A stretch of 33,569 nt of DNA from Promethearchaeota archaeon (GCA_011364975.1 RDOE01000035.1:1-33569); one strand, 5' to 3'. Counted from the stretch's first letter, positions 2,549 to 31,611 are shown. Translations and numbers: made by a program. The notes: generated by a model not told the origin, from the sequence alone.

Positions 2549-2681
2549 ATTTACGTTCTAAACTTATTGTTAATTATGATTTTACCAATTTCAAGCAATC
2601 TTATATATAGAAATGGATTCAATTTCACCCGAGGTAAAATTATTAGAAGAAGAAATAAAAAATGTGAAAATAGATTGATAG

Positions 2682-3971: not shown

Positions 3972-4051
3972 TTTTATAAAAAGTGTTTCTGTAACTCCAC
4001 TTAGAAAACCATTTTTATTGAAAATTGAATTATAATAGATAAATTATAGAG

Positions 4052-5374: not shown

Positions 5375-6574
5375 TTGAAAATGGACTTAACATCAGAAGA
5401 GCAAGATATGCTCGATGGTAAATTTGGAAAAGCAGCTCAGAAATCTATGGAAATTTTATCAGCTTTAGGTGAGATTTTTAATGCTGAATCTATGGTTGAG
5501 GTTACCGGTGTTCAGATAGCTGGAGTTTCATATGATAATCTAGGTGAAGCGGGTTTGGAATTTTTAAGTGAAATGGCAGAAGATGGAAAGGTTAAAGTTC
5601 TAACAACCTTAAACCCCGCAGGAATGGATCGCGAAAATTGGCGTTTATTAGGAATAGATGAGGACTTTGCTAAGAATCAGAATCGTGTAATTGATGCATT
5701 TGCAAGAATGGGGGTAATTACTACATGTTCTTGCACTCCTTATTTAATCGGAAATTCGCCTCACTTTGGACAACATATTGCATGGGCTGAAAGTAGTGCA
5801 GTATGTTATGCAAACTCGGTTATTGGTGCACGAACAAATCGAGAAGGAGGACCAAGTGCATTAGCATCCGCAATAACTGGAAAAACACCAAATTATGGGT
5901 ATCACTTAGATGAAAATCGTCACGGTCAAGTTTTAGTAAAGGTAAATTGTGATCTCAAAGGTACTGACGAATTTGGTGTATTAGGAAAAATTATTGGTGA
6001 TAAATTAGTAGAATTAGGAATGAAAATCCCCTATATCATTGGAATAACTTCTGCTACAGTTGAAGAGCTTAAATCATTTTGTGCATCAGTAGCTACATAT
6101 GGGGGAACAGCATTATTTCATATGAAAGGAATAACTCCCGAATATGATAAATATCCACAACCTAGCGAAAATTTAATTGAAATAAATAAGATTAATTTAG
6201 AACAAGCCCGAAATAAACTTATTGATGATGATATTGAAGTGGATTTTGTAAGTATTGGTTGTCCTCATGCGTCAATTTATGAAATTGAAAAAATATCGCG
6301 TTTATTAAAGGGTAAAAAAGTAAATAAAGAATTTTGGATTACTACCGCAAGACCTACTAAAAGAATTGCTGATGAAGCAGGTTATTCTAAAATTATTGAA
6401 AAAGCGGGAGCAAAATTTGCTGCAGATACATGCTGTGTTGTAGCTCCAATAAAGGGACGGTTCAAAGGAATTATGGTTGATTCGGCTAAGGCTTGTTATT
6501 ATGGTCGTGCAAAGAACAAATTTAAAGTAAAAATTGGAACGATTGAAGATTGCATTGAGGAGGCTATAAAATGA
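5375..6574 (+). CDS. Aconitase X catalytic subunit, probable phosphomevalonate dehydratase large subunit (PMDh-L); true start possibly ATG at 5381
   Basis: TTLNPAG, CSCTPY, WAESSA, NSVIGARTNREGGP, GCPH and DTCCVVAP motifs of AcnX (DUF521); mevalonate operon context. Confidence 0.92.
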   Translation: MKMDLTSEEQDMLDGKFGKAAQKSMEILSALGEIFNAESMVEVTGVQIAGVSYDNLGEAGLEFLSEMAEDGKVKVLTTLNPAGMDRENWRLLGIDEDFAKNQNRVIDAFARMGVITTCSCTPYLIGNSPHFGQHIAWAESSAVCYANSVIGARTNREGGPSALASAITGKTPNYGYHLDENRHGQVLVKVNCDLKGTDEFGVLGKIIGDKLVELGMKIPYIIGITSATVEELKSFCASVATYGGTALFHMKGITPEYDKYPQPSENLIEINKINLEQARNKLIDDDIEVDFVSIGCPHASIYEIEKISRLLKGKKVNKEFWITTARPTKRIADEAGYSKIIEKAGAKFAADTCCVVAPIKGRFKGIMVDSAKACYYGRAKNKFKVKIGTIEDCIEEAIK

Positions 6575-6960
6575 AATTAAAGGGAAGAAAAATATATAAA
6601 GGAATTGTTGAAGCTAAAGCAATTGTAACTAAGGAAGGAATTTCATTTTATGGAGGAGTTGATCCTGAAACCGGTAAGATTGTTGAGGTAGGCCATGAAC
6701 TTGAAGGCCAATCTATCATTGGAAAGGTTTTAGTCTTTCCATCTGGCAAAGGCTCTACAGTTGGATCTTATACCATGTATAGAATGACGAAAAATAATAC
6801 TGCCCCTGCAGCAATTGTAAATGAACAAATTGATACAATCGTAGCTGTAGGGTGTATCATTAGCGAGATTCCTTGTATAGATAAAGTAGACATAAATAAT
6901 ATTAAAACGGGACAAAATATACTTGTTAATGCTTCAGAAGGATTTGTAGAGGTGAAATAA
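6571..6960 (+). CDS. Aconitase X swivel subunit, probable phosphomevalonate dehydratase small subunit (PMDh-S)
   Basis: ISFYGGVDPETG, GKGSTVGSY (DUF126); ATGA overlap with the large-subunit stop. Confidence 0.92.
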   Translation: MKLKGRKIYKGIVEAKAIVTKEGISFYGGVDPETGKIVEVGHELEGQSIIGKVLVFPSGKGSTVGSYTMYRMTKNNTAPAAIVNEQIDTIVAVGCIISEIPCIDKVDINNIKTGQNILVNASEGFVEVK

Positions 6961-7896
6961 TTGGGTACCGGGAGGGGTTATGGAAAAACTATCTTATTCG
7001 GGGAACATTTTGTAGTTTTTGGGCTCCCTGCAATTGCTTCAGCATTAGGATCTTTTACCCTCGCAGAAGTTAAAGTTTCTGAAGGAAAAGGATATACTGT
7101 GAATGATCAGAGACCTGCTACACCCGGATATAAAAAAACAAAATATAAAGAGTCAATGCAATCAATAATGAATGTAATTGATCATTTAAATATTGATTTA
7201 AATAATAATAAACTTGAGATTACTTTTTCTGGTGACTTAATTGCTGCAAGTGGAGTTGGGGCTTCTGCAGCTCAATGTACATCATTAGTTCGTGCGTTAA
7301 ACAGTACCTTTAATCTTAATTTAAATAACGAAAAGGTTAACGACGCAGCCTATGAGGGAGAGAAAGCATACCATGGAACACCTTCTGGAATTGATAATAC
7401 AGCTTCTACATATGGTGGATTGATTTGGTTTGTTAAAAACCTAAGTGGGGGCAAAAATACAATGGATCTTTTACAGATGCCAAAAAAAGTACCTCTAATA
7501 ATAGCTAATTCAGGAATTACGGCTTCAACAACTGAAGTTGTTGCTGATGTTCGCCGTTTAAAAGAAAAAAATCCTGAAAAGTTCGAAAAAATTTTTGTTA
7601 AATATAAAGAATTAGCAAAATCAGCTAAAAAAGCCATACTTGAAGGAGATATTGTCGATATAGGTAAACTAATGAACCAAAATCACAAACTATTACAAGA
7701 GATCAATGTGTCGGGAGAGATCAATGACAAATTAGTCAACCTTGCTCTGAAAAATGGAGCTATTGGTGCTAAAATGACTGGAACTGGTCGAGGTGGTTTA
7801 GTTATTGCTTTAGCAGAAAATGAGATAATGCAAGAAAAGATTGCTAACGCTATTGAAAAAGAAGGATATGTTGTTTGGAAAACCATGATAGGATGA
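6961..7896 (+). CDS. mvk: Mevalonate kinase (GHMP family)
   Basis: GK.ILFGEHFVV, SGVGASAA, HGTPSGIDN, GAKMTGTGRGG motifs; TTG start preceded by SD-like GAGGTG. Confidence 0.95.
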   Translation: MGTGRGYGKTILFGEHFVVFGLPAIASALGSFTLAEVKVSEGKGYTVNDQRPATPGYKKTKYKESMQSIMNVIDHLNIDLNNNKLEITFSGDLIAASGVGASAAQCTSLVRALNSTFNLNLNNEKVNDAAYEGEKAYHGTPSGIDNTASTYGGLIWFVKNLSGGKNTMDLLQMPKKVPLIIANSGITASTTEVVADVRRLKEKNPEKFEKIFVKYKELAKSAKKAILEGDIVDIGKLMNQNHKLLQEINVSGEINDKLVNLALKNGAIGAKMTGTGRGGLVIALAENEIMQEKIANAIEKEGYVVWKTMIG

Positions 7897-7909
7897 GAGA
7901 GATTGAAAA

Positions 7910-9817
7910 TTGCGAAAGAACAATGAAGTAATAATTTTAAAATTAGGTGGAAGTTTATTAACTGATAAAAATCAACCATTTTCAATAAGACAAAACGTAA
8001 TAGAAAATTCAATTGATCAAATAATAAATTATAACAAACCACTTATTTTAATTCATGGAGGGGGATCTTTTGGTCACCCCCTAGCAAAAAAGTATGAAAT
8101 TTCTGAAGGACGGAACATTTCTATTGAAAACCAAGTATTAGGGCTTTCAAAAACACACGAGGCTATGAATAAATTAAATTCACTACTAATTAATAAGTTT
8201 TTAGAGAAAAATTTTCCCGTGATTCCTTTTCAACCTTCTAGTATTTTTTTCAAAAATTATGAGAAAATCTCAACACCTACGATAGATATAATTGAAACTG
8301 CACTGGATATTGAACTATTGCCTATTTTATATGGAGATATCATTTTTGACATAAATGGTTCTTTTTCAATTATTTCAGGAGACAAAATAATTCTTGAATT
8401 ATGCAAAAAATTAAAGCATTATAAAGTTTCAAAAGTTATATTTGCAATTGAAAAGGATGGGATTTTTGTACGTAGCAACAACAAAGACGAAGATTATCAA
8501 AAATTAGTATCTGAAATTAGCTATGATGATTTAGACAATTTAGTCTTAGCTAATTTAGATAACAAAATCGATGTTACGGGAGGAATCCGTGGAAAGATTG
8601 ATATTATTAAAAAAATTTGTAAAAAACATATTCCTGTTCAAATAATAAACGGTATGAAGGAAGAATTTATCATGAAGGCTTTAAAATCTAAAGATATAGT
8701 ATGCACAAAAATAAATCCACCTAATAAAGATAAATTAGAAGATATTAGGGAGAGAAAATTAGATCATTTAAAAATTCCGATAGAATATGACGTACAACAT
8801 AGGATAAACCATTTTAAGGATATAAAGTTGCTCCATTATCCACTTCCGCAAATAGATATTAGTGAAGTTAATCTTTCTACTAGATTCTTTAATAAAATGA
8901 TCTCTGCTCCGATTTGTATAGCTGCTATAACGGGCGGACATGCTTTATCAGGAAGAATTAACGAGATTTTAGCGAAAGCGGCTGAAGCTGAAAATGTAAT
9001 TATGAGTGTGGGTAGCCAACGAGTTGGATTAATGGATCCTACATCAGTTGAAACGTTCAAGGTGGTGAGGAAGGTCGCTCCAAATATCCCTATAATTGGA
9101 AATTTAGGCATTGGCCAGATCAGTGACCCTAAATTTAACATTGAAGACTTTAAAAGCTGTATTGAAATGATTAATGCTGATGTTATGGCTATTCATTTTA
9201 ATGCTCTACATGAATTAGTTCAAGATAAAGGGGATATTTCATATAAAAATTTCAATAAGAATTTCGAAAAAATTAGAAATACTTACGAAATTCCGATCAT
9301 CGCAAAAGAAGTGGGAACCGGCTTTAATCAAGAAGTAGCCATAAATTTAGAAAAACTTGGTTTTGATGGTTTTGACATTGGTGGAACTGGAGGCACCAGT
9401 TTTGCAGCTATAGAATCTAACCGGGATAATTTTGATAATGATAAGTATTCACGTAATCCTGCTGAGGTTTTTAGGGAATGGGGTATACCAACACCAATCA
9501 GTATATTAAATGTGAGAAAAATATCGCAAAAGCTCATAATTGCAACCGGGGGGTTAAAAACAGGTTTGGATATTGCTAAAAGTATAGCATTAGGAGCAGA
9601 TATAAGTGGTTTTGCTTACAAATTCCTTATAACCGCATGGGAAGATATGAAAATTCATACAATTTCTAATACAATAAAGGAAATAAAGACATTAAAAAAC
9701 GAATTACGGTCTAGCTTATGGCTAATGAATCTTAAGAGTCCACTCGAGTTGAAAGGTAATCAGAAAAAATACATACTCCTTGGAAAACTTAATCAGTGGT
9801 TAAATCAAAATTATTAG
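7910..9817 (+). CDS. fni: Fusion of isopentenyl phosphate kinase (N-terminal ~270 aa) and type 2 FMN-dependent isopentenyl-diphosphate isomerase (C-terminal)
   Basis: IPK: LKLGGSLLTDK, HGGGSFGH, SGD, DVTGGIRGKI. IDI-2: RKLDH, ITGG, GSQR, GNLG, KEVGTG, GGTSF, WGIPT, TGGLKTGLDIAKSIALGA. One uninterrupted frame. Confidence 0.94.
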   Translation: MRKNNEVIILKLGGSLLTDKNQPFSIRQNVIENSIDQIINYNKPLILIHGGGSFGHPLAKKYEISEGRNISIENQVLGLSKTHEAMNKLNSLLINKFLEKNFPVIPFQPSSIFFKNYEKISTPTIDIIETALDIELLPILYGDIIFDINGSFSIISGDKIILELCKKLKHYKVSKVIFAIEKDGIFVRSNNKDEDYQKLVSEISYDDLDNLVLANLDNKIDVTGGIRGKIDIIKKICKKHIPVQIINGMKEEFIMKALKSKDIVCTKINPPNKDKLEDIRERKLDHLKIPIEYDVQHRINHFKDIKLLHYPLPQIDISEVNLSTRFFNKMISAPICIAAITGGHALSGRINEILAKAAEAENVIMSVGSQRVGLMDPTSVETFKVVRKVAPNIPIIGNLGIGQISDPKFNIEDFKSCIEMINADVMAIHFNALHELVQDKGDISYKNFNKNFEKIRNTYEIPIIAKEVGTGFNQEVAINLEKLGFDGFDIGGTGGTSFAAIESNRDNFDNDKYSRNPAEVFREWGIPTPISILNVRKISQKLIIATGGLKTGLDIAKSIALGADISGFAYKFLITAWEDMKIHTISNTIKEIKTLKNELRSSLWLMNLKSPLELKGNQKKYILLGKLNQWLNQNY

Positions 9818-9860
9818 TTCTTTATCTGAATAGTCAATTTAAACGAAGTTAGGTATTAGA

Positions 9861-10409
9861 CTAATAATCTCCCCATCTTTTTATCTCGCTCTCAATACCA
9901 ACGTGATCTAAAATTCTACAAACAAAATATTCATGAAGTTCATCAATATTTTTAGGTTTTATGTAGTAGGAAGGAATCGGAGGAGCTATTATAACTCCAA
10001 GTTTTGATAATTTAAGCATGTTTTCCAAATGAATTGCGCTAAAAGGACTTTCTCTTACCACAAGGATAAGTTTTCTATTTTCTTTTATCATTACATCTGC
10101 TGCTCGAGTAATCAAATTATCGGCATAACCATTAGCGATAGAAGCTAAGGTTTTCATTGAACAAGGTATTATAATCATTGCATTCACTTTATATGAGCCG
10201 CTAGCTGGTGGTGCAGTTAAATCATCAGCATTATAGTTTTTATCTGCTAATTTTCGAATATCTTCCACTTTATATTCAGATTCAATCTTAATGATTTTTT
10301 CAGCTATTTTTGATATTATTAATTCTGTTTTAATATCCTTTATTTTTAATTTTTCCAATAATTTAACCGCAAGTATTATACCTGAGGCACCTGTAATCGC
10401 AATTAACAC
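9861..10409 (-). CDS. ubiX: Flavin prenyltransferase UbiX (supplies prFMN to the UbiD-type AMPD)
   Basis: ITGASG, ASGS, PCSMKTLASIANG, NLITRAADV, RESP..IHLENM motifs; GTG start with upstream GGAG. Confidence 0.95.
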   Translation of the reverse strand: MLIAITGASGIILAVKLLEKLKIKDIKTELIISKIAEKIIKIESEYKVEDIRKLADKNYNADDLTAPPASGSYKVNAMIIIPCSMKTLASIANGYADNLITRAADVMIKENRKLILVVRESPFSAIHLENMLKLSKLGVIIAPPIPSYYIKPKNIDELHEYFVCRILDHVGIESEIKRWGDY

Positions 10410-10506
10410 TTTGTTCTCTCTCCATTAATGTTTGAATTTTATTATTTCTGAATAATATTTAATTATTTTAGTGATTTTTTAAAAAACATTTTTTAAACAA
10501 AAAATA

Positions 10507-11574
10507 TTAAAATTTTCTATTAACCACAAAATTTAATAAGTCATTAAAGAACTCCAAATCTGAGTCATTTATTACAGATTCCAATTTTTCAAGTGAGTCT
10601 CTTGCTTCTTCATAATATTTTTTTGCCAGCATTTTGCTTGAATTAGTTACATCTGCTTTAAGAAACATCGCTTTAATTTCTTTTACCTCTGAATCTGTTA
10701 TTTCTTGTCTCTCAATTAACTGATTAAGGCGATCTACGTCGTTATTTTCCAACTTATTATACGCTTCAATCAATAAACAAGTTTTCTTTCCTTCTCTAAT
10801 ATCACCGTCAGTAGGCTTTCCTGTAATCTTTTCATCTCCGAAAGTTCCTAAAATATCGTCAATGATTTGAAAAATAATTCCTAAATTAATCCCATAAGTT
10901 GATAACATAGTCTTGTATTTATCTTGAACCTTAGCATAGTTTGCTCCTATTAAAATTGATTTTTCTAGCAGAGCACCAGTTTTCAATGAAATCATTTCAA
11001 TATAATCTTCAATTGCCAAAATTTTACGATTTACCATATCTGTTTCAATCAAAACTCCATTAGCAATTTCTATAAAAGCTTGTTGATAATAATTAATAGC
11101 ATTTAAATTCAAATCCCATTTAAAGTCATTATAAAGATAAGCATCTAAACCTAAGAAAAATGCTGAATCACCCCCTATAATCCCTATTGAGTTACCAAAA
11201 TCAATATTATTCATCTTATTCAGACTATAATTCTGATGATAATTTTGAAATCTATAATGAAACGCAGGATTTCCTCTTCTAAAATTGTCTTTATCTATGA
11301 TATCATCATGTATTAATGAAGCATTATGAAGAAATTCTACTCCAACACTAGGAAATATTATCCTTTCATCTTTTTCATTGCTAAACGCATTAAATGAAGC
11401 AATACATAATAACGGGCGGATTCTTTTTCCCCCTGCTAAAAAATAGTTTTTTAATTCCTGGTAATACTCTTGTAAAAAGCTATTTTTGACCTCTTTTAAC
11501 TTCTTATCGTAAATTATACTAATCGCATCGTTAATTTTTTCATTATAATATTTTACATATTCTGGAAATTTCAT
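10507..11574 (-). CDS. idsA: trans-isoprenyl diphosphate synthase (GGPP/GFPP or longer polyprenyl synthase)
   Basis: GGKRIRP, FARM LIHDDIIDKDNFRRG, KTGAL, SARM FQIIDDILG, GKP..GDIREGKKT. Confidence 0.92.
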   Translation of the reverse strand: MKFPEYVKYYNEKINDAISIIYDKKLKEVKNSFLQEYYQELKNYFLAGGKRIRPLLCIASFNAFSNEKDERIIFPSVGVEFLHNASLIHDDIIDKDNFRRGNPAFHYRFQNYHQNYSLNKMNNIDFGNSIGIIGGDSAFFLGLDAYLYNDFKWDLNLNAINYYQQAFIEIANGVLIETDMVNRKILAIEDYIEMISLKTGALLEKSILIGANYAKVQDKYKTMLSTYGINLGIIFQIIDDILGTFGDEKITGKPTDGDIREGKKTCLLIEAYNKLENNDVDRLNQLIERQEITDSEVKEIKAMFLKADVTNSSKMLAKKYYEEARDSLEKLESVINDSDLEFFNDLLNFVVNRKF

Positions 11575-11589
11575 CTTTTGATATCTCCT

Positions 11590-12696
11590 TTAAATTAATT
11601 TCCTCATAACAATTTCGGAGCTCCTGTATTTTTCCCAAAGTGATAAAAACTTCTTTAAAGTCTCATCATTATCAAATATTTTATCTCTCGCTGTCCTTTT
11701 AGCCTTTAATACTCTTAGAAAATTTTTATCTAATAATCTTTCATATTGAGTTCCTAATTTATCAAGCCTATCTTTTGATTCACATGATTTAATAGACTCA
11801 ATAGCAAATTGACCAGACATCATAGCATATGGGATTCCTTTTCCACTTATTGGATCCACAATTCCTCCAGCGTCTCCCACTGCAAATACATTCTCTTTAT
11901 AAAGTTGAGACCTTAAACCTACAGGAATCAAATGTGGTTTAAATATTTCAATTGCTGAATTTTTTAGAGCGGTTTGTACAAAGGGGAGAGCTACAAATTT
12001 TTTAAACTCTTCCCTTGAATTCTTTATTAGATTAATTTGGTTTCCCCAGCCCACCGTTATAATTTCTTCTTTTGGAAATAACCAGGCATACCCAATTGGA
12101 ATTAGGTTTTTAATTCCGAAAAATAAATGAACTACATCAGATCCCAGAGTACTATTAATATAGGATTTTGAAGTTTTCATTTCTTTGGTTATTGTCAAAA
12201 TAAGATTCGATTTTTCGAAAAATGGCCATTTAAGTGCTTTCAGAGTGGATGATGTAACACCATCAGCGGCGATTACATACTTTGTAGAATATTTTTCATT
12301 TTTTGTGTTAATTTGATATGAATCCCCAATCTTAACTATCCTTATGAGTCTTTCTCTATCTTTTAATATCACTCCACTAGCAACAGCCATATCGGATAAA
12401 AATTTGTCAAATACGCTGCGCCAGATTACAGCTCCTTTACCTTTTTTTGAAAAATCGTAACCATCAACATGGTGTAATTCTAGAGATTCTATAATTCTTC
12501 CAATCATATTCTCGGGATAATCAATTTCTTCTACTAACTCCCATGCTATTGCCCCACCACAAGCTTTATACCTTCCACCTTCATTAAGGCTCTCTTTTTC
12601 AAGTAAACATACAGAATATCCATTTTCTGCAGCAGTTTTAGCAGCTATTGAGCCTCCAGGTCCAGCTCCAACAACAATTATATCATAATTTTGCAT
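11590..12696 (-). CDS. Geranylgeranyl reductase family FAD oxidoreductase
   Basis: GAGPGGS FAD motif, KACGG, R..FD, GYAWLFPK (YxWxFP), GDAGG.VDP.SG.GI; co-oriented with idsA. Confidence 0.88.
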   Translation of the reverse strand: MQNYDIIVVGAGPGGSIAAKTAAENGYSVCLLEKESLNEGGRYKACGGAIAWELVEEIDYPENMIGRIIESLELHHVDGYDFSKKGKGAVIWRSVFDKFLSDMAVASGVILKDRERLIRIVKIGDSYQINTKNEKYSTKYVIAADGVTSSTLKALKWPFFEKSNLILTITKEMKTSKSYINSTLGSDVVHLFFGIKNLIPIGYAWLFPKEEIITVGWGNQINLIKNSREEFKKFVALPFVQTALKNSAIEIFKPHLIPVGLRSQLYKENVFAVGDAGGIVDPISGKGIPYAMMSGQFAIESIKSCESKDRLDKLGTQYERLLDKNFLRVLKAKRTARDKIFDNDETLKKFLSLWEKYRSSEIVMRKLI

Positions 12697-25112: not shown

Positions 25113-26648
25113 TTACTTTTGTTCTTTAATTTCAATACCATCTGGTAAAGTTACACTATCAACCATCATACCTTCAGCTTTCCGATAATCATCGAAAGTT
25201 CTCGCTCCAACTTGTTTCATATATTTAAGTAGTGTATTTTCCACATCTTTATCAATGGTAGTAGGTTGATGCTCTTTAAGAATCTGATCAACTTTCTCAC
25301 GAGCTCGTTCTATGATATCCTTTCCCCCTTTCTTAAACCAAGAAGAACGTCTGGCTCTATCGGCTAATCTAGGCATATACAATTCTGATTTCATATACTT
25401 CCGAGTATGACTCTCTGCGAGAAAATTAACTCCTTTAATATCACTCGTTGCTACTTTCTTAATTATATCGAAACCGATCGTATCTTCATTAACTTTTATC
25501 CCTTCTAAGGCTCTTTTTACCATCCCTGCTAAATCATCATCTATAACAAGTAGCTCTAATGCTTCTACTAAAGTGGCTTCATATGTACCTGCGCATGTAA
25601 TATAATTTACTCCCGCTTGAGCTGCTAGCATTAGAGTTTGAAGGCGTTCATATCCATTCTGTAAATCCAAAACTTTAGAATCAGTACCACCTCCCGGACC
25701 CCTTGATGGAATATTATAAAACCGGGCTAGTTGTGCTATCCCTGCCGTAATAAGCCCCATTTCCACAGATCCCATAGCAGAGTTACCTGTTCGCATATCA
25801 GTTATATGTGACACAGTCCCAAAGAATACAGGCGCTCCAGGATTAAGAATCTGCGACAAGACAACACTTCCAATGATTTCCGCATTTGTTTGAGTAATTA
25901 AGCCTGCTAGAGTCACAGGAGCAGAGGCTCCTGCTAGTGCTTCTGGAGCAATTATAGTCGGTTGCTTATATTTGGTAAAAATTGAAAATCCATTTGTCAT
26001 TAATTGCGGAAGATGAAGTGGACTTGTAGGATTCATAAAACCAACAAATCGTGGGTTCTTAATTAATTCATCATCCCCTCCTACTATAATAGAGGCCATA
26101 TTCATCATATCCTGGGAAGCTAATCGTCCAAGACATCCCAAACCATAAGGTTTTTTTGTGTTTTTAACCCATTGATAGATACATTGGGCGTGAATAGTTA
26201 TATATGAAACGTCATTAGGCCATACATCGATATGAGAACAAACAATATTTTCTAAACTATCAACAATTTTAATCTGCTGAATAGTATCAGATAATAATGT
26301 TTTACGAACACCTGCTTTTTTACTTTCATCTTTTATTTTTACAGGAGTCCCAATAGTAGCAAATTGGGTGCTAGTTGTATTCACTTCAAATTTAAACGTA
26401 CCGTCTGGTCCATACAGATTAAATGAATTAGGTGTAGATTTTATTTTTTCTTTAACAAGAGATTCAGGAAATCTAACAAAATGCGTTTCTTCATCGACAA
26501 TAGCACCATAATCTCTTAAAAGGGCTCTAGTATCTTGAGCATCTATTTTCAATCCTACATTAGCTAATAATTGCATAGAAGTTGAATGAATTAATTCTAA
26601 CTCGTCTTTAGAAAAAACTTCCAGATAATTTAATTTCAATTTATGCAC
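25113..26648 (-). CDS. mttB: MttB-superfamily corrinoid methyltransferase, pyrrolysine-free (paralog 1)
   Basis: IH..S..LL..VG, NPTSPL, AGASAPVTLAG...QTNAE, PGAPVF, D.RTG, QLARFYNIPSR, TDSK..D.Q.GYE, LVIDDD; no in-frame TAG; GTG start. Confidence 0.92.
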   Translation of the reverse strand: MHKLKLNYLEVFSKDELELIHSTSMQLLANVGLKIDAQDTRALLRDYGAIVDEETHFVRFPESLVKEKIKSTPNSFNLYGPDGTFKFEVNTTSTQFATIGTPVKIKDESKKAGVRKTLLSDTIQQIKIVDSLENIVCSHIDVWPNDVSYITIHAQCIYQWVKNTKKPYGLGCLGRLASQDMMNMASIIVGGDDELIKNPRFVGFMNPTSPLHLPQLMTNGFSIFTKYKQPTIIAPEALAGASAPVTLAGLITQTNAEIIGSVVLSQILNPGAPVFFGTVSHITDMRTGNSAMGSVEMGLITAGIAQLARFYNIPSRGPGGGTDSKVLDLQNGYERLQTLMLAAQAGVNYITCAGTYEATLVEALELLVIDDDLAGMVKRALEGIKVNEDTIGFDIIKKVATSDIKGVNFLAESHTRKYMKSELYMPRLADRARRSSWFKKGGKDIIERAREKVDQILKEHQPTTIDKDVENTLLKYMKQVGARTFDDYRKAEGMMVDSVTLPDGIEIKEQK

Positions 26649-26657
26649 TCCGTAGCT

Positions 26658-27299
26658 TTATTTGCATAATTGTTGTACTTTTTGTACTGCTTCTATTGCG
26701 TCATCTGCATGTGCATCAGCCCCGATTTGGTCTGCCCACTCTTCTGTGGTGGGAGCGCCCCCTACAATTACTTTATATTTCTCCCTTAAGCCTCTCTTTT
26801 TTAATTCCTCAATTACTTGTTTTTGAAAATCCATTGACATCGTTAATAAAGAAGAAAGACCAATAATATTTGCCCCTACTTCTTCCGCTTTTGAAATAAA
26901 TTGATCAGCTGTCACTTCAACACCTAAATTATAAACTTCAAAACCATTTGAAAATAGAAAGGATGCAACAAGGTCCTTTCCAATACTATGGACATCACTT
27001 TCTACAGTCCCTATTACTACTTTTCCTAAAGATTTCTTCTCTCCACCTGAAGCTCTAATAGCAGGATCTAATACTTCATTAATTGCTTTCTTTACTACTT
27101 CTGCAGAGCCTATTAAGTCTGGCAAAAAAATTTCTTCACTCTCAAACTGATCTCCAATAAATTTCATAACTTTTCCGATTATCTTTAATAATTCTTCAGC
27201 AGTAGCTTCTTTGTTCTCTAAAGTAGAGAGACATAATTTAATTAATCCTTCTTCATCCCATTCAACAATAAGATTTTTCACTTTTTCTTCTAAAGCCAT
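26658..27299 (-). CDS. Cobalamin-binding corrinoid protein (MttC/MtgC-like)
   Basis: N-terminal cap (IG..FE..EIFLPDL), DVHSIGK (DxHxxG), GLSSLLT, VIVGGAP, WADQIGAD. Confidence 0.94.
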   Translation of the reverse strand: MALEEKVKNLIVEWDEEGLIKLCLSTLENKEATAEELLKIIGKVMKFIGDQFESEEIFLPDLIGSAEVVKKAINEVLDPAIRASGGEKKSLGKVVIGTVESDVHSIGKDLVASFLFSNGFEVYNLGVEVTADQFISKAEEVGANIIGLSSLLTMSMDFQKQVIEELKKRGLREKYKVIVGGAPTTEEWADQIGADAHADDAIEAVQKVQQLCK

Positions 27300-27366
27300 T
27301 TTCTTCTCTCTAAATAAATTTCGAAATATAATTTTAATTTAGTACTACTCAGTATAAAAGAAAAAG

Positions 27367-27386
27367 TTTATCAAAAAATTGATAAA
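27367..27386. promoter_or_regulatory. Candidate operator, perfect 8-4-8 inverted repeat TTTATCAA-AAAA-TTGATAAA
   Basis: Sits near the middle of the 142-bp divergent intergenic region between the corrinoid gene and mttB paralog 2; AT-rich, so chance is not excluded. Confidence 0.35.
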
Positions 27387-27441
27387 TAAATGACTTCTTG
27401 TTAGTAAATATTGAAACTGATTTTTATAATATGATTTTAGA

Positions 27442-28950
27442 ATGAATTTAAGCAAAATAGAACTATTTTCTAAAGAAGAAATTGAACAGATTCATCAAGC
27501 ATCAATAGAGTTATTAAAGGATGTTGGAGTAAAGATTGAGTCTGAAGAAGCATTAAATTTATTGAAAAATCATGGCGTTATTGTGGATTTAAAAACAAAA
27601 TTTGCTAAATTTCCAGAAGAGTTGATAAAAAATCAATTAAATCATGTCCCAAATTCCTTTAAATTGTATGGGAGAGATGGGTCCTTTCAGTTTGAAGTAA
27701 ACACAACTAGCACCCAATTTGCCACCGTTGGCACACCTGTAAAGATTTATGATCCCTCTGATAAAAAGAAAGTACGAAAGACAGTTCTTGCTGATACTAT
27801 TAGTCAGATACGTATCGTTGATAGTTTGAAAAACATTATGTGTTCTCATGTGGATGTGTGGCCAAATGATGTTCCCTATCTAGAAACTCATTATCATGCA
27901 ATAAGAGCATGGGCTGAAAATAGTTTAAAACCATATGGTCTGGGATGTTATGGAAGACTAGCAAGCACTGATATGATGAAGTTAACATCAATCGTAGTTG
28001 GTGGAGAAGAGGAGTTAAAGAGACACCCAAGATTGATTGGATTTTTCAATCCTACTAGCCCATTAACACTCACAAAAATAATGTTAAACGGCCTTTTTGT
28101 TTTTGCTGAATGGAATCAGCCTACCATTATTGCACCAGCTGCAAGTGCAGGTTCAACTGCCCCTGTAACTTTGGCAGGGTTACTTGTCCAAACTAATGCA
28201 GAAGTACTTTCTTCTATAGTATTAACCCAATTAATAAAGCAAGGTACTCCTGTATTTTATTCTACTATGAATTGCCCTATGGATCCCCCAACTGGCAATG
28301 TTGCGTGGGGATCAGTTGAAACTGGGTTAATCACCGCAGCAGTGGCTCAGATGGCACATTATTATAACATCCCTTCTCGAGGTCCAGGTGCAGTTACAGA
28401 ATCTAAATGTTTTGATATCCAAAATGGCTTTGAACGTTTTATGACATTATATTATGCTGCCAATTCAGGTATTAATTATATAACATGTGCCGGAACATAT
28501 GAATCATCATTAGCAGAAGCCTTAGAGTTATTGGTCATCGATGATGAATTAATAGATATAATGAAGCGGGGGATGGAAGGAATCAGGGTAAATGATGAAA
28601 CCTTGGCTAAAGAAGAAATTAAACGGGTAATTACTGAAGGAAAAAATTATTTAATGTTAAAACACACTGCTAAAAATACAAGAAAAGAGATCTTTGTTCC
28701 AAAGCTAGTAGATAGAGAACGGAGAGGTATTTGGATACGAAATGGATCTAAAGATATTGTAATGCGAGCAGGAGAGAAAGTAAATGAAATTTTAAGTAAA
28801 CAAAAAGGACTTGGGATCACTATAGATGAAGATAAAAAATTTCAGGAATTCTTCAAAATTATTTCAGCGAGGAGTTATGATGATTTCCGTAAAGCTGAGG
28901 GAATGGATGAATTAGATTCAACTTCTGGATTATCTGGAGTGGAGGGATAA
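27442..28950 (+). CDS. mttB: MttB-superfamily corrinoid methyltransferase, pyrrolysine-free (paralog 2)
   Basis: Same motifs as paralog 1 (NPTSPL, STAPVTLAG, YNIPSRGPG, ESK.FD.Q.GFE, INYITCAGTYE); no in-frame TAG. Confidence 0.92.
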   Translation: MNLSKIELFSKEEIEQIHQASIELLKDVGVKIESEEALNLLKNHGVIVDLKTKFAKFPEELIKNQLNHVPNSFKLYGRDGSFQFEVNTTSTQFATVGTPVKIYDPSDKKKVRKTVLADTISQIRIVDSLKNIMCSHVDVWPNDVPYLETHYHAIRAWAENSLKPYGLGCYGRLASTDMMKLTSIVVGGEEELKRHPRLIGFFNPTSPLTLTKIMLNGLFVFAEWNQPTIIAPAASAGSTAPVTLAGLLVQTNAEVLSSIVLTQLIKQGTPVFYSTMNCPMDPPTGNVAWGSVETGLITAAVAQMAHYYNIPSRGPGAVTESKCFDIQNGFERFMTLYYAANSGINYITCAGTYESSLAEALELLVIDDELIDIMKRGMEGIRVNDETLAKEEIKRVITEGKNYLMLKHTAKNTRKEIFVPKLVDRERRGIWIRNGSKDIVMRAGEKVNEILSKQKGLGITIDEDKKFQEFFKIISARSYDDFRKAEGMDELDSTSGLSGVEG

Positions 28951-30234
28951 GTGATGGAAGAAAAAGAAAGAAAAACACAAGATCAGATTAATAAAGAATT
29001 AAGAGAAGAATGGGACAAATTAGAGTTTGCTACACAAGAAGTAAGAGCCGGAGAGGATCCCTATCCAAGCACCAATAATAGTTTGAGAGTTCCTATTTAT
29101 GCTACTAAATCTTATGTCTATCCTACGATGACTGATATGCTTAAACATCATTATTTTTATTCAAGAACTGAAAATCCTACTCTATATGCTTTAGATAAGA
29201 AACTAGCAACTTTACATGAAGGTGAGGATGCTATATCAGTAGCATCAGGAATGGGGGCAATACATCTTGCTTGTTCAAGTATCCTTCAAAAACGATTGAA
29301 GCGTATAAAGCCACATAAAATAGGAAAGTTTCTTCCTCAGACTAACTCTGAGAAGATTCCAAACTTCGTTGTTCATAAAAATCAATATACTGGAACATAT
29401 CGTTTATTTTTAAATCTATACCCCCAAATGGGTTTTATGCCTCGTATTGTCGATTTACGAGATATAAATGCTTTAAAAAAGGCAATAGATTCTGATACAA
29501 GATTTATATTTTTTGAAACTCCGGCAAATCCATCAATTGATGTAATCGATATTGAAAAATGTGCAGACTTGATACATGAAGTAAACGGAAAATGTATTGT
29601 AGATAATACTTTTGCAAGTCCAGCGTTGCAAAAACCATTACAATTAGGTGCAGATATAGTAATCGAAAGCTTAACAAAGTATATTAATGGGCATGGAGAC
29701 GCAATGGGTGGGGTAATTGTCGGTCCTAAAAATGATCTCCTCAATATTAGATATTTTTGGTTAGAGTTAGAGGGCCAAGTAATGAGTCCTTTTAGTGCTT
29801 GGCTCATTTTAAGAGGTTGTAGAACTCTAAGCATTCGAATGGATAAACATTCCTCGACTGCAATGCAAATCGCTGAATTTTTGGAGAATCACCCAAAAGT
29901 AGCTAAAGTGATTTATCCTGGATTAAATTCGCATCCTGCTCACGAAGTTGCTAAAAAGCAAATGAGCAATTTTGGAGGGATGATTGGGTTTGAACTAAAT
30001 TCTATGGAAGAAAGTTATAGCTTTATTGATAATTTAAAAACGATAAAAATAGGCGTTTCTTTAGGCGATACAACATCTTTAATGGAATACACTTCGATTA
30101 TGACAGGAATCGATTTAGCATCTTGGGAAAAAAAATTGATGGAAATGTCTGATACACATTTTCGTTTTTCTGTTGGTTTAGAAGATCCCCAAGATTTAAT
30201 TATAGATTTAGAACAAGCGCTAAATAAAATATAA
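28951..30234 (+). CDS. PLP-dependent trans-sulfuration family enzyme (methionine gamma-lyase/cystathionine gamma-lyase/synthase-like), divergent
   Basis: YSR.ENPT, ASGMGAI, ETPANP, VDNTFASP, ESLTKYINGHGD (PLP Lys), RG..TL..RM..H, VSLG, R.SVGLED. Confidence 0.9.
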   Translation: MMEEKERKTQDQINKELREEWDKLEFATQEVRAGEDPYPSTNNSLRVPIYATKSYVYPTMTDMLKHHYFYSRTENPTLYALDKKLATLHEGEDAISVASGMGAIHLACSSILQKRLKRIKPHKIGKFLPQTNSEKIPNFVVHKNQYTGTYRLFLNLYPQMGFMPRIVDLRDINALKKAIDSDTRFIFFETPANPSIDVIDIEKCADLIHEVNGKCIVDNTFASPALQKPLQLGADIVIESLTKYINGHGDAMGGVIVGPKNDLLNIRYFWLELEGQVMSPFSAWLILRGCRTLSIRMDKHSSTAMQIAEFLENHPKVAKVIYPGLNSHPAHEVAKKQMSNFGGMIGFELNSMEESYSFIDNLKTIKIGVSLGDTTSLMEYTSIMTGIDLASWEKKLMEMSDTHFRFSVGLEDPQDLIIDLEQALNKI

Positions 30235-30246
30235 AAAAATAGAAAT

Positions 30247-31611
30247 TTAAGCAGATTTAACTTTATCCATTTTCTCTTGATGAAGCTCCTTAAGTTTCAC
30301 CTTCATCTCAAGTACCTTTTGCTTTGTAAAAGGAAAGAAATACAAACTTATCAAAGATACTCCTAAGGCTATACCCGGAACCCATACAAACAAAAATCGT
30401 AATCCGAACTCAACATTTGGGATGTTTGGAACATATTCTTCCCAACCAGTCTGAGTAAAGACTATGCCAACTATTATTATTGATAGAATCATTGATAATC
30501 TCATAAAGAAGTTTGCAATCCCGAAGAAAATCCCTTCTCGCCTAACACCAGTTTTCAACTCATCATCATCAATAACATCCGCGACGATGTACCAAATAAA
30601 GTAAAGCATTCCTCCAAAGCCAATCCCCATGAAAATTACAACTATAATTGCATCTATATATGAGGAAATGAATAACATTGGCAAAGAAGCAATGAAATAT
30701 AAAATAACTGATAAGCCATATCCGATTCGACTACCCAATTTAATGTCAAGTTTTTTCCATAGAAACATAGTGACAATTCCAACAATATAAAGAAGACCCA
30801 TCAAGATAGAAGTTTCAAATGAGCTCGTAGTCCCTAAAATCTCCGCTGAGAATAATGGAACGATTGTAGCCAATAATAAAAGGATGAACTCATATAAGAA
30901 AAACATTATAATATAGAGTACAAATCCCTTATTTCTAAATGTATAACCTAATGCTTTAATATAAGAAAATTGTTTTTGATAATCAAGTTTAAATTCTTCT
31001 CGTTCTTTAGCGCCCCATATTAAGAAAATTATTAAGGAAACTCCCACAATAATCGTCGTAGCAATGCCATTCAATAAATACCCCTCTCTTACATTAGTTT
31101 CTCCAATAAATATTCCTGGTATCAAAGCTGCTAGTATTAATCCTACAGCGGCAAAAATCTGTCTTATAGTGTTCACTTGTGTTCGTTCTTCGACAGATGT
31201 GTAAAGCTCGGGGAAAAGAGAGTCAGTAGGAAGAGCAATGAGAGTATAAGCAGTGTCGTAAAGTAATAACATTATCAAAAGATAATAGAATTGGGTTATT
31301 TCTCCACTTAAAGGTGGGAGCCAAATTAAAATTTCCAACGCCAAAACAGGAATAAAACCTATCATGATATATATTCGACGACGACCAAACCTTGAATGCG
31401 TTCTATCTGAGAGGTAACCAATCAAAGGATCATTGAAAGCATTCCAAATAGTCCATATGATATATGCCGTCATTATATAGCCTATACTCAATTTAACAGC
31501 AGAAAAATAAAATGTAAACACCCAAAGGTTAAACGCACTGTTGATGAACCACTCTACACCATTGCCTAATGAAAATGCATATTTTTGACTTTTACTAAAT
31601 CGCATACTCAT
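30247..31611 (-). CDS. MFS transporter, glycoside-pentoside-hexuronide (MelB/GPH-like) family
   Basis: WNAFNDPLIGYLSDRT.SRFGRRR, ER, ADVIDDDELKTGVRREG motifs; about 12 TM. Confidence 0.9.
   Translation of the reverse strand: MSMRFSKSQKYAFSLGNGVEWFINSAFNLWVFTFYFSAVKLSIGYIMTAYIIWTIWNAFNDPLIGYLSDRTHSRFGRRRIYIMIGFIPVLALEILIWLPPLSGEITQFYYLLIMLLLYDTAYTLIALPTDSLFPELYTSVEERTQVNTIRQIFAAVGLILAALIPGIFIGETNVREGYLLNGIATTIIVGVSLIIFLIWGAKEREEFKLDYQKQFSYIKALGYTFRNKGFVLYIIMFFLYEFILLLLATIVPLFSAEILGTTSSFETSILMGLLYIVGIVTMFLWKKLDIKLGSRIGYGLSVILYFIASLPMLFISSYIDAIIVVIFMGIGFGGMLYFIWYIVADVIDDDELKTGVRREGIFFGIANFFMRLSMILSIIIVGIVFTQTGWEEYVPNIPNVEFGLRFLFVWVPGIALGVSLISLYFFPFTKQKVLEMKVKLKELHQEKMDKVKSA

Follow-up and report, generated by a model that had tools for sequence, protein, structure and literature searches.

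A stretch of 33,569 nucleotides from a Promethearchaeota archaeon, referred to here as the window, carries two methyltransferase genes of the MttB superfamily side by side with genes for a corrinoid protein, a PLP enzyme resembling γ-lyases, and a carrier; hence the question of which substrate could call for both a methyltransferase and a lyase. To our knowledge, few methyltransferases without an assigned function are as numerous in anaerobes as the non-pyrrolysine MttB homologs, whose known substrates number only about five and all resemble betaines.

Architecture of the divergent locus

All five ORFs are present at 25113–31611, where the sequence-only reading had placed them, and the closest proteins bear source names of Promethearchaeota or Lokiarchaeota. 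On the minus strand, the non-pyrrolysine methyltransferase MttB1 (MT1; 25113..26648, 511 aa) shares its orientation with a corrinoid (B12) carrier protein (26658..27299, 213 aa). On the plus strand, the MttB1 paralogue MttB2, an accessory member of the cassette (27442..28950, 502 aa), is followed by a γ-lyase-like enzyme from a divergent subfamily of the Cys/Met-metabolism PLP family (28951..30234, 427 aa), on which an MFS_2/GPH-type carrier gene converges from the minus strand (30247..31611, 454 aa). ORF coordinates and Pfam assignments thus agree with the divergent layout proposed earlier. Between the corrinoid gene and mttB2, an AT-rich divergent intergenic region of 142 bp, recognised by reading the sequence (27300..27441), presumably holds the promoters, going by its position. 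The lyase start abuts the mttB2 stop, as had also been claimed: the TAA at 28948–28950 is immediately followed by GTG ATG, and a GGAGTGGAGGGA stretch lies just upstream, so that translational coupling of mttB2 and the lyase is plausible.

Both methyltransferases belong to the MttB superfamily (PF06253; 338.8 bits for MttB1 and 302.7 bits for MttB2, cut-off 25) and share 55% identity. The corrinoid protein exceeds the cut-offs of PF02310 (88 bits) and PF02607 (47.7 bits), and the DVHSIG of its translation fits D-x-H-x-x-G. This pairing of a helical cap (B12-binding_2) with a Rossmann B12-binding domain agrees with a corrinoid protein of the TIGR02370 type that serves methyltransferases. Its best NCBIfam match is MtgC, at 176 bits against a cut-off of 310, and no named corrinoid-protein subtype applies because every equivalog remains under its cut-off. 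The PLP enzyme scores 397.6 bits against PF01053, with all NCBIfam equivalogs below cut-off (best 352 versus 513), and no other protein of this 99%-complete genome passes the PF01053 cut-off. The carrier matches PF13347 at 201.1 bits; against TIGR00792 (cut-off 231) it reaches 147 bits and its Anaerolineales counterpart 262, and its nearest solved chains are the MFSD2A lysophosphatidylcholine symporters (81 bits) and MelB (60 bits). It is presumed to import the substrate, but GPH/MFS_2 carriers are known mainly for glycosides rather than amino acids, which counts against amino acid import.

Linkage and loss in archaea and bacteria

Within the genus sample, 25 lyase orthologues with 58–77% identity were found. 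The upstream neighbor is MttB2 (19 loci) or the corrinoid protein–MttB1 pair (4 loci) in 23/23 loci with upstream sequence, and an MFS gene lies downstream in 22/22 loci with downstream sequence. In other genera of the family, the lyase, the corrinoid protein, and MttB1 occur together in 19/20 loci, in at least four flanking contexts and three gene orders; the G042 locus has nothing but the five genes in common with the window. The synteny of lyase and mttB is accordingly conserved in related Asgard genomes, with genomes from one genus or family counting as non-independent observations. None of the four distant lyase homologs (33–36% identity) has MttB/corrinoid or MFS neighbors.

The invariant methyltransferase of these cassettes is the MttB1 orthologue, present in 19/20 cross-genus cassettes. 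Because MttB2 is missing or relocated in many of the genus and cross-genus loci and its pocket motifs are identical to those of MttB1, the earlier proposal that two MttBs are required finds no support. Two further paralogues of the subfamily are encoded in this genome on other contigs (C70 and C11), neither of them adjoining any lyase.

The lyase has no match in 12 of 36 same-genus genomes, including the near-complete genomes G018, G010, and G019. In their contiguous loci the module has been removed by three different deletions, one leaving an 81-nt mttB1 remnant (G018), one clean (G010), and one taking mttB1', the corrinoid gene, mttB2, and the lyase (G019). The lyase therefore behaves as an accessory enzyme, and the housekeeping cystathionine role that the sequence-only reading had named as its counter-case is set aside.

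Outside the archaea, Anaerolineales carry an operon with the order MttB→MFS_2→lyase and unshared flanks. Counting loci that extend 4 kb or more on each side, 19/20 from Anaerolineales and 7/10 from metagenomes include the lyase, one and three, respectively, lacking it, against 0/20 control loci, the controls being distant MttB loci from the same scans (0/35 overall). MFS_2 is found in 31/34 Anaerolineales, 14/30 metagenome, and 0/35 control loci, and no corrinoid protein was found in the flanks of the 34 Anaerolineales operons. With these conservation counts and the empty control, the MttB–lyase linkage is far beyond chance. One bacterial operon contains an M28 aminopeptidase, and a Leu/Ile/Val-type binding protein adjoins MttB in two loci (L151 and L152), each a weak hint of an amino-acid-like substrate.

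In the MttB tree, all linked MttBs, MttB1 and MttB2 included, form one clade of 46 rows (SH-aLRT 99), split into an archaeal half and a bacterial one, and the 22 distant rows lie outside it. Both the MttB tree and the lyase tree, each built by a "quick" method, recover the Asgard clade and the same pair of bacterial sub-clades. The AU test decides neither for nor against a common origin of all the linked lyases (p = 0.43), and the bacterial linked lyases score highest against methionine γ-lyase (MGL) models.

These patterns bear on the simplest alternative, in which ordinary quaternary-amine (betaine) methyltransferases are accompanied by a PLP enzyme of unrelated role. Asgard genomics does regard non-pyrrolysine MttBs as likely quaternary-amine enzymes without an assigned substrate (PMC11291895). 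However, only one MttB subfamily shows the lyase linkage, which is absent from all 35 control loci and persists across rearrangement, changed flanks, and a domain boundary; furthermore, the MttB and lyase sub-clades match, and the MtgB residues for glycine betaine (Y97, H348, and F356) are not kept, which makes this alternative quite improbable. The MttB, corrinoid, PLP-enzyme, and carrier genes very probably constitute one functional unit, and the earlier proposal of a module for a methylated, amino-acid-like substrate finds strong support in the conserved and rearranged Asgard synteny, the joint loss, and the independent bacterial operon.

Active sites of the MttB subfamily and the PLP enzyme

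The AF2 model of MttB1 (pLDDT 88.6) superposes on MtgB (2qne) with TM-scores of 0.85/0.91 at 31% identity, and the MttB model gives TM-scores of 0.83–0.91 to 2qne, 9yce, 7xcl, and 4yyc. In the case of MttB/MttC from Methanosarcina barkeri (7XCL), the fold is the same, the distance is similar (241 bits for MttB1 and 221 bits for MttB2), and the β8 loop is equally long, but MttB1 and MttB2 lack a pyrrolysine codon and carry an Arg in place of its Tyr. In the alignment to the 7xcl chain, its pyrrolysine (X) falls on the final Gly of GPGGG-TDSK for MttB1 and, for MttB2, on the Val of GPGAV-TESK, so the Gly and Val assigned to this position from the sequence hold. The profile search of this genome returned no PylS above cut-off. 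True trimethylamine MttB (TIGR02369) was rejected, the scores being 411 (MttB1) and 394 (MttB2) against a cut-off of 525, with no pyrrolysine at the aligned position.

The system resembles MtgB/MtgC(/MtgA) from Desulfitobacterium hafniense (2QNE, 9YCE) in its non-pyrrolysine TIM barrel, its two-domain corrinoid protein, and the retained R312. MtgB is described as binding its substrate through cation–π interactions of Y97 and F356 and through carboxylate contacts of R312 and H348 (PMC13080624). Only the Arg is kept in MttB1 and MttB2: Y97 is replaced by Ile/Val, H348 by Thr-Cys with a one-residue gap, and F356 by Thr/Ser. An MtgB identity was rejected on this basis, which speaks against the earlier counter-case of ordinary glycine-betaine enzymes. 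Unlike the MtgB system, the present one has an Asp141/Trp143/Cys352 signature and a loop one residue shorter at the H348 equivalent, its cassette is without an MT2 gene, and it is linked to a PLP lyase and a GPH-type carrier, for which the MtgB system offers no parallel.

The full subfamily signature comprises D141, W143, T351-C352, and T355, all placed by the AF2 model at the ends of strands on the barrel's catalytic face, together with R316 and H153, and is complete in both MttB1 and MttB2. Within the subfamily, the Arg equivalent to MtgB R312 is present in 43/45 rows, with Lys in the other two; Cys352 (44/46), His153 (45/45), and Asp141 (45/46) are all situated on the catalytic face of the model. 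An R312-equivalent Arg is present in all characterised members, whose substrates are acidic quaternary amines (PMC13080624). The same source covers Eubacterium limosum MtcB, MtyB, MtpB, and MthB, likewise non-pyrrolysine enzymes with the conserved Arg and acidic onium substrates, namely carnitine, γ-butyrobetaine, proline betaine, and phosphocholine. In a comparison of structures, the onium-to-carboxylate spacing in γ-butyrobetaine and carnitine equals that in S-methylmethionine; these E. limosum substrates differ in having no free α-amino group, and no PLP lyase partner has been reported for their enzymes. The retained Arg and the subfamily-specific Asp and Trp therefore favor a predicted action of MttB on the amino acid itself, not on a small volatile.

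This pocket weighs on the reverse order, the second option of the sequence-only reading, in which the lyase acts first, methionine yielding methanethiol or S-methylmethionine yielding DMS, and the released group is demethylated by the MttBs onto the corrinoid protein. A metagenome protein (P0121), in which a URO-D/MtaA-type methyltransferase domain is fused to a Cys/Met PLP domain in one long chain, indicates that corrinoid-type methyl transfer and the PLP family can share one polypeptide, but it is a single sequence, 39% identical and outside the linked clades. Neither methanethiol nor DMS would call for a carboxylate-binding Arg and an added Asp, the Arg is replaced by Tyr in M. barkeri MttB, whose substrate trimethylamine is small and non-acidic, and the known methylthiol:corrinoid enzymes are from another family; a lyase-first order is thus very unlikely.

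The best solved-structure match of the PLP enzyme is L-methionine γ-lyase (C. freundii 2RFV and Pseudomonas putida 1GC0; 300.6 bits), and the equivalents of C. freundii MGL Y58, R60, Y113, D185, K210, S339, and R374 are kept in all linked clades. The linked sequences, 37 from Asgard and 38 from bacteria or metagenomes, thus retain the Schiff-base Lys, the Tyr that stacks on PLP, the Asp facing the pyridine N, and the carboxylate-binding Arg. Unlike MGL, the linked lyases have Tyr-Thr-Gly (Asgard) or Tyr-Ala/Thr-Gly (bacteria) at the site of Tyr-Gly-Cys, Thr/His/Gln in place of the family-conserved Glu of SLGxxES, a remodelled HPxxxTH loop, and, in Asgard, an insertion of about 21 residues at about 113–140. 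Tyr-Gly-Cys is an active-site hallmark of MGL according to PMC10248269, and an MGL identity (TIGR01328) was rejected at 341.6 bits against a cut-off of 549.7 and with the motif missing. With Tyr-Gly-Cys and the SLGxxES Glu both missing, methionine is possibly not the lyase substrate, and the missing motif mildly disfavors plain methionine in that role.

The same divergence would suit a scheme in which methionine is the methyl donor: MttB would S-demethylate L-methionine onto the corrinoid protein, and the PLP enzyme, without the Cys of the MGL Tyr-Gly-Cys (PMC10248269), would be a homocysteine γ-lyase whose irreversible step (H2S + 2-oxobutyrate + NH3) pulls the unfavorable demethylation. The carboxylate-binding Arg and the subfamily-specific Asp would suit an α-amino acid, and methionine should be within reach of any protein fermenter, which fits Asgard archaea and Anaerolineales. 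In the model, Cys352, His153, and Asp141 could in principle bind a thiolate-stabilising metal, such a leaving group having its precedent in the Zn-dependent thiol methyltransferases. However, a thioether is a far poorer methyl donor than an onium, and the candidate ligands C137 and H139 are archaea-only, with C172 kept in 35/45 rows. Furthermore, all characterised non-pyrrolysine MttB members use onium donors (PMC13080624), and methionine as the donor is considered unlikely.

A putative route for a methylated amino acid

The preferred reading, to which a probability of roughly 0.55 is assigned, is that the region is a substrate-specific catabolic module that demethylates an amino acid and then γ-eliminates the same skeleton. 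Which way the flow runs, which enzyme acts first, and what the substrate is are inferred, the last purely from family chemistry. The MFS_2 carrier would import a methylated compound bearing a carboxylate and a free α-amino group, and MttB1, with its redundant paralogue MttB2, would move one methyl onto the neighboring corrinoid protein in its Co(I) state. The downstream machinery is encoded elsewhere in the genome (two MtrH, one MeTr-like, and one RamA-like): the MtrH- or MeTr-type methyltransferases would pass the methyl to a C1 carrier, and the RamA-type activase would keep the corrinoid active. The demethylated amino acid would next undergo α,γ-elimination by the PLP enzyme, yielding 2-oxobutyrate and ammonia and releasing a thiol or another leaving group.

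A module running in the biosynthetic direction, with betaine methyls passed to methionine and a PLP enzyme making homocysteine, or methionine from activated homoserine, would be consistent with the finding that no MetE-type domain (PF01717) was detected in this genome, and with a locus on contig C159 that pairs an MttB-like gene with a homocysteine S-methyltransferase and a corrinoid protein. For marine bacteria, a 2025 paper reportedly connects methionine synthesis with the demethylation of glycine betaine. Against this direction, homocysteine synthesis is encoded apart from the module by HcyBio genes present twice, the module is absent or deleted in near-complete sister genomes, the conserved core holds no homoserine-activating or homocysteine-methylating gene, and a dedicated importer would be better suited to catabolism, which leaves biosynthesis highly improbable.

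For the catabolic module, the likeliest substrate class would be a (3-amino-3-carboxypropyl)sulfonium. S-Methylmethionine would be converted to methionine and further to methanethiol, 2-oxobutyrate, and NH3; that it is itself the substrate is a tentative suggestion from family chemistry, with S-adenosylmethionine a distant second. Known routes of methyl-sulfur and sulfonium methyl transfer are MtsA/MtsB, MtsD/F/H, and the MmuM-type enzymes (PF02574), which would be functional analogues if the substrate were S-methylmethionine or methionine; the Mts enzymes belong to the URO-D family and MmuM is a Zn-dependent Hcy S-methyltransferase, both differing from the MttB family. The literature search found no MttB-superfamily member acting on a sulfur compound. 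With considerable doubt, the locus may represent a corrinoid-dependent system that demethylates a sulfonium amino acid (S-methylmethionine or S-adenosylmethionine), which would be the first of its kind, combining a distinct MttB subfamily common to Lokiarchaeial Asgard archaea and Anaerolineales with a co-evolved non-canonical γ-lyase that would cleave the S-substituted homocysteine so formed.

One MttB subfamily is thus delimited by phylogeny, signature residues, and the PLP γ-lyase and GPH-type carrier that accompany it, which narrows its predicted substrate to a methylated α-amino acid and opens the question to direct assay with three recombinant proteins. The linked bacterial operon is new here, the MttB→MFS_2→lyase trio being kept in sediment bacteria unrelated to Asgard, and it offers a simpler experimental system than the uncultured Asgard host. 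The trio shared by Asgard archaea and bacteria points to an undescribed way to feed on a compound that is methylated and amino-acid-like. Should that compound be a sulfonium or methyl-sulfur amino acid, MttB chemistry would reach from nitrogen to sulfur, and the sulfonium reading would add an unrecognised anaerobic route from organosulfur to C1 units and a biological source of methanethiol in sediments. The sulfur and C1 cycles of sediments would thereby be linked in one more way, and Asgard archaea and Anaerolineae would have a defined methylotrophic niche.

Cassette genes and their genome setting

The five-gene layout proposed by the sequence-only reading was recovered in full, with all five ORFs situated where it had placed them and their Pfam families in agreement. 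The minus strand carries MttB1 (25113–26648, 511 aa; MTTB, 338.8 bits) and the corrinoid protein (26658–27299, 213 aa; B12-binding and B12-binding_2). The plus strand carries MttB2 (27442–28950, 502 aa; MTTB, 302.7 bits) and the Cys/Met PLP enzyme, hereafter the lyase (28951–30234, 427 aa; Cys_Met_Meta_PP, 397.6 bits), and the MFS carrier lies on the minus strand at 30247–31611 (454 aa; MFS_2, 201.1 bits). A GTG ATG is located directly 3' of the mttB2 stop, with the purine-rich GGAGTGGAGGGA just upstream. None of the five cassette proteins reaches the cut-off of an NCBIfam equivalog. The pyrrolysine (X) of the M. barkeri MttB chain in 7xcl aligns to Gly in MttB1 and to Val in MttB2, as that reading had also claimed, and no PylS above the cut-off was found in the window genome.

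The window corresponds to contig C134 in a 3.74 Mb assembly, 99% complete. Six MttB-family genes exist in this genome; MttB1, MttB2 and the paralogues on contigs C70 and C11 share 42–59% mutual identity, and the paralogues on C121 and C159 show 26–29%. The lyase is the single Cys/Met PLP member above the Pfam cut-off, and its nearest relatives carry Lokiarchaeota/Promethearchaeota source names. Two MtrH homologs, one MeTr-like pterin-binding protein and one RamA-type activase are encoded outside the cassette, so partners of a general type exist for passing on the methyl group and for reactivating the corrinoid. In addition, the genome contains an MFS_2 expansion (19 paralogues of the window carrier by BLAST) and 15 URO-D/MtaA-like proteins, several of whose genes adjoin one another or corrinoid domains, such as a B12-binding and URO-D fusion on contig C39. 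The homologs of a chloromethane dehalogenase reported in Asgard archaea by a 2026 paper belong to this URO-D family and are not MttB proteins.

The remaining content of the window is unrelated to the cassette and comprises a mevalonate/isoprenoid cluster, a GH38 mannosidase, a phosphodiesterase and a DNA methylase. The isoprenoid cluster (920–12696) is of archaeal type and looks complete, containing HMG-CoA synthase, HMG-CoA reductase, a UbiD-like decarboxylase, the large and small subunits of AcnX, a GHMP kinase, a UbiX-like flavoprotein, a polyprenyl synthase and a geranylgeranyl-reductase-like protein, together with a 635-aa fusion of an amino-acid-kinase-fold domain to an FMN-dependent dehydrogenase-like domain. 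The N6/N4 DNA methylase (PF01555, 20931–22217) possesses a TTG start overlapping the end of the upstream gene and a long C-terminal extension matching no known family.

Linkage and loss across Asgard archaea

The synteny of mttB and the lyase gene, which the sequence-only reading had put forward for checking, is conserved in Asgard archaea. A lyase match (E ≤ 1e-40) was present in 30 of the 61 genomes searched, including 24 of the 36 other genomes of the genus. Within the genus, 25 lyase orthologues were recovered at 58–77% identity; all 23 with upstream sequence adjoin MttB2 (19) or the corrinoid protein–MttB1 pair (4), and an MFS gene lies next to the lyase in all 22 with downstream sequence. 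Among four distant lyase homologs (33–36%), none has MttB2, the corrinoid protein–MttB1 pair or an MFS gene as a neighbor. A scan of the phylum for lyase orthologues (E ≤ 1e-90) returned 76 of 400 genomes, with 71 of 134 in the family of the window and four outside that family.

The cassette is embedded in a common backbone within the genus, and the cassettes of other genera occupy at least four distinct flanking contexts; between the window and G042, a genome of another genus, the five cassette genes are the sole shared genes. In these other genera and the outliers, the lyase, the corrinoid protein and MttB1 are kept together in 19 of 20 loci, the exception being a 45–48% homolog on a 6-kb contig. 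Five-gene forms, four-gene forms without MttB2 and forms with the lyase followed by MttB2 were all observed. The core is therefore MttB1, the corrinoid protein, the lyase and the MFS carrier, and MttB2 is accessory.

Two other neighbors were rejected as core members. Flavin-reductase-like genes (PF01613) stand beside the cassette in G042 (L045:10208–10801) and in genus g18 only (L054:10882–11457, genome G187), and the two share 27% identity. Similarly, a recurring ORF of approximately 180–210 aa beside the MFS gene encodes an RDD-like membrane protein, which belongs to the backbone of two genera only and is absent from the window.

Three related genomes have lost the cassette as a unit. In G018, an 81-nt 3' remnant of mttB1 alone remains between the backbone genes, and in G010 the backbone genes adjoin each other with the cassette absent. 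In G019, the MFS gene survives a deletion that took out the corrinoid gene, mttB2, the lyase gene and the 5' half of mttB1. G029 and G022, whose contigs end inside or beside mttB1 (the L050 match breaks off some 435 nt short of the contig end), were left out of this evidence. No genome examined in the comparison retains the lyase without an adjoining MttB and corrinoid gene. A housekeeping role in trans-sulfuration was rejected for the lyase, since it is patchy among relatives and deleted in some, and homocysteine synthesis can be assigned to the two HcyBio genes of the genome. Meanwhile, the lyase orthologue at G017:C65:50049–51311 (loci L005 and L033), in a cassette without MttB2, is broken by one in-frame TAG; no PylS above the cut-off was found in the G017 genome, so this TAG more likely reflects a nonsense mutation or sequencing error than a recoded codon.

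Bacterial counterparts and phylogeny

An exhaustive MttB1 search over 1.84 billion cluster representatives yielded 6753 hits, of which only five clusters reach at least 41% identity before a plateau at 30–38%. The Cys after β3 and the Thr-Cys in β8 are confined to those five clusters, whose members are uncultured and comprise Promethearchaeota, one Bathyarchaeota-labelled MAG and sequences without names. P0126, a protein from one of them, was used as the query for a scan of species genomes, giving 35 loci at 60–90% identity, all in Anaerolineales/Chloroflexota MAGs, besides 37 more distant MttB loci. These Anaerolineales loci form a one-strand operon in the order MttB, MFS_2 and Cys/Met PLP gene, with both the MFS_2 and PLP families confirmed; the PLP enzyme shares 36–40% identity with the Asgard lyase, and no further flanking gene cluster is common to more than three loci. 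Furthermore, a metagenome scan supplied 37 loci with MttBs mostly 39–46% identical to MttB1, in arrangements that vary from a divergent lyase with MttB and then MFS to a row of lyase, MttB, corrinoid protein and MFS. The metagenome scan with the protein P0127 gave no close relative of that protein (best 42%) and returned other subfamily members.

The distant MttB loci from the same scans, taken with the same flank length, served as controls, and the length filter was passed by 34/35 Anaerolineales, 30/37 metagenome and 35/37 control loci. With both flanks of at least 4 kb, the lyase is present in 19/20 Anaerolineales and 7/10 metagenome loci versus 0/20 controls; for all loci the corresponding values are 26/34, 15/30 and 0/35. 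MFS_2 occurs in 31/34, 14/30 and 0/35, respectively, and the corrinoid protein in 0/34, 7/30 and 17/35. Separately, the metagenome contig L163 bears a larger methyl-transfer island, where three MttB-family genes and a corrinoid protein occur together with a GntR-like regulator, a class-I aminotransferase and a distinct Cys/Met PLP enzyme that looks canonical.

Both trees were built by quick searches with few outgroups. In the maximum-likelihood tree of 68 MttBs, constructed without the characterised E. limosum members, the Asgard and bacterial/metagenome subfamily forms one clade of 46 rows (SH-aLRT 99), divided into archaeal (100) and bacterial (99) halves; the 22 distant rows outside include the paralogues on C121 and C159. 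The lyase tree (39 rows) unites the bacterial/metagenome linked lyases in one clade (95) and the Asgard lyases in another (100), and the two bacterial sub-clades match the two sub-clades of their partner MttBs. A single clade of all linked lyases is neither supported nor rejected by this tree (AU p = 0.43). The matches listed in a first homolog search with the lyase were orthologues at 66% identity or above and were uninformative on outgroups.

Active sites and the predicted substrate

According to a 2026 study (PMC13080624), Y97 and F356 of the glycine betaine methyltransferase MtgB are cation-π partners of the substrate, R312 and H348 are its carboxylate partners, and every characterised member, all of them acting on acidic quaternary amines, keeps R312. 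In the alignment, this Arg is retained in the window MttBs, whereas Y97, H348 and F356 are replaced by Ile/Val, by Thr-Cys in a loop one residue shorter, and by Thr/Ser, respectively. The pocket motifs are practically identical between 35 MttB1 and 26 MttB2 orthologues, and the residue aligned with pyrrolysine is G, V or I in the former and Val in the latter. Set against 146 further MttB representatives, the subfamily is marked by D141, W143, W160, G169, M181, Q229, R335, T351, C352, T355 and E492; across the archaeal and bacterial rows, H153 occurs in 45/45 and R316 in 43/45, with Lys in the other two. With an Asp and a Trp added next to the carboxylate-binding Arg, the pocket would suit a substrate bearing two positive groups, such as an α-ammonium and an onium.

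An AF2 model of MttB1 (pLDDT 88.6, pTM 0.89) superposes on the MtgB and MttB structures with TM 0.83–0.91. Positions 137/139, 172, 316 and 352 are modelled at or just after the ends of β2, β3, β7 and β8 on the catalytic face, and C137, H139, C172 and C352, at these strand ends, are conserved in the archaeal half. A Zn(Cys)3 site was rejected: in the bacterial half C137 becomes N/S/T, H139 becomes Q and C172 occurs in 18/27 rows. A candidate Asp/His/Cys metal site in the pocket is a weak possibility.

Two distant paralogues differ at the Arg position. At C159:2158–5173 (L074), three genes stand in a row, for an MttB-like protein with His there, for a homocysteine S-methyltransferase (PF02574, 218 bits) and for a corrinoid protein; this trio may constitute a split, methylamine-fed methionine synthase, and the genome yielded no MetE-type domain. 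At C121:23258–27106 (L075), an MttB that shares Tyr at the Arg position with true MttB and has Leu aligned to pyrrolysine adjoins a PIG-L-family deacetylase and an MFS_2 carrier, near Fe-S and molybdopterin oxidoreductase genes.

The nearest solved structures to the lyase are methionine γ-lyases (MGL; 300.6 bits), with the alignment broken into two pieces by a lyase insertion; this insertion of approximately 21 residues exists in Asgard members only. The 37 Asgard and 38 bacterial/metagenome linked lyases compared keep the equivalents of Y58, R60, Y113, D185, K210, S339 and R374. However, the Tyr-Gly-Cys described in PMC10248269 as the MGL hallmark becomes Tyr-(Thr/Ala)-Gly in all linked lyase clades, the Glu of SLGxxES becomes Thr, His or Gln in all but three sequences, and the HPxxxTH loop is remodelled in all. 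For the bacterial linked lyases the top-scoring models are MGL, still below the cut-off. The lyase is thus predicted from its residues to be a catalytically competent γ-family PLP enzyme whose distal substrate pocket is altered, and it lies outside every named equivalog. Only two long, fused lyase homologs were found (URO-D + PLP and PALP + PLP), and neither is a fusion of lyase and MttB. One of them, the single metagenome sequence P0121 (757 aa), carries a URO-D/MtaA-type methyltransferase domain at its N terminus and, at its C terminus, a Cys/Met PLP domain that shares 39% identity with the window lyase.

Full-text literature searches returned no account of the linkage of MttB and lyase, a coverage that leaves out the supplementary MttB tree of PMC11291895 (Fig. 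12), which may already delimit the subfamily; that paper regards Asgard MttBs of such type as likely quaternary-amine enzymes of unknown substrate. Seven metagenome studies account for the DNA runs holding the region, their sources being marine sediment, estuary, mangrove, soil-labelled and other sediment, and none of the listed runs holding window 25113–31611 is RNA. These habitats do not discriminate between substrates and fit an anaerobic, detritus-fed niche.

Substrates of PLP enzymes in the Cys/Met family must offer a free α-amino group together with a leaving group at the β or γ position. A non-pyrrolysine MttB depends on a good methyl donor, and the cassette MttBs would additionally need an acidic group. 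Of the compounds combining all of these features, the simplest is a (3-amino-3-carboxypropyl)sulfonium, the leading candidate for the substrate. S-methylmethionine would be demethylated to methionine, which the lyase would then cleave into methanethiol, 2-oxobutyrate and ammonia; alternatively, the sulfonium could be S-adenosylmethionine, yielding S-adenosylhomocysteine. Ranked lower are methionine itself acting as a thioether donor with subsequent cleavage of homocysteine, a reverse order in which the lyase acts first and releases methanethiol, and a biosynthetic role of the module. The methyltransferase (MT1), the carrier and the PLP enzyme, which occur together in both domains, are the parts expected to be substrate-specific, and the corrinoid protein, MT2 and activase can be shared with other systems.
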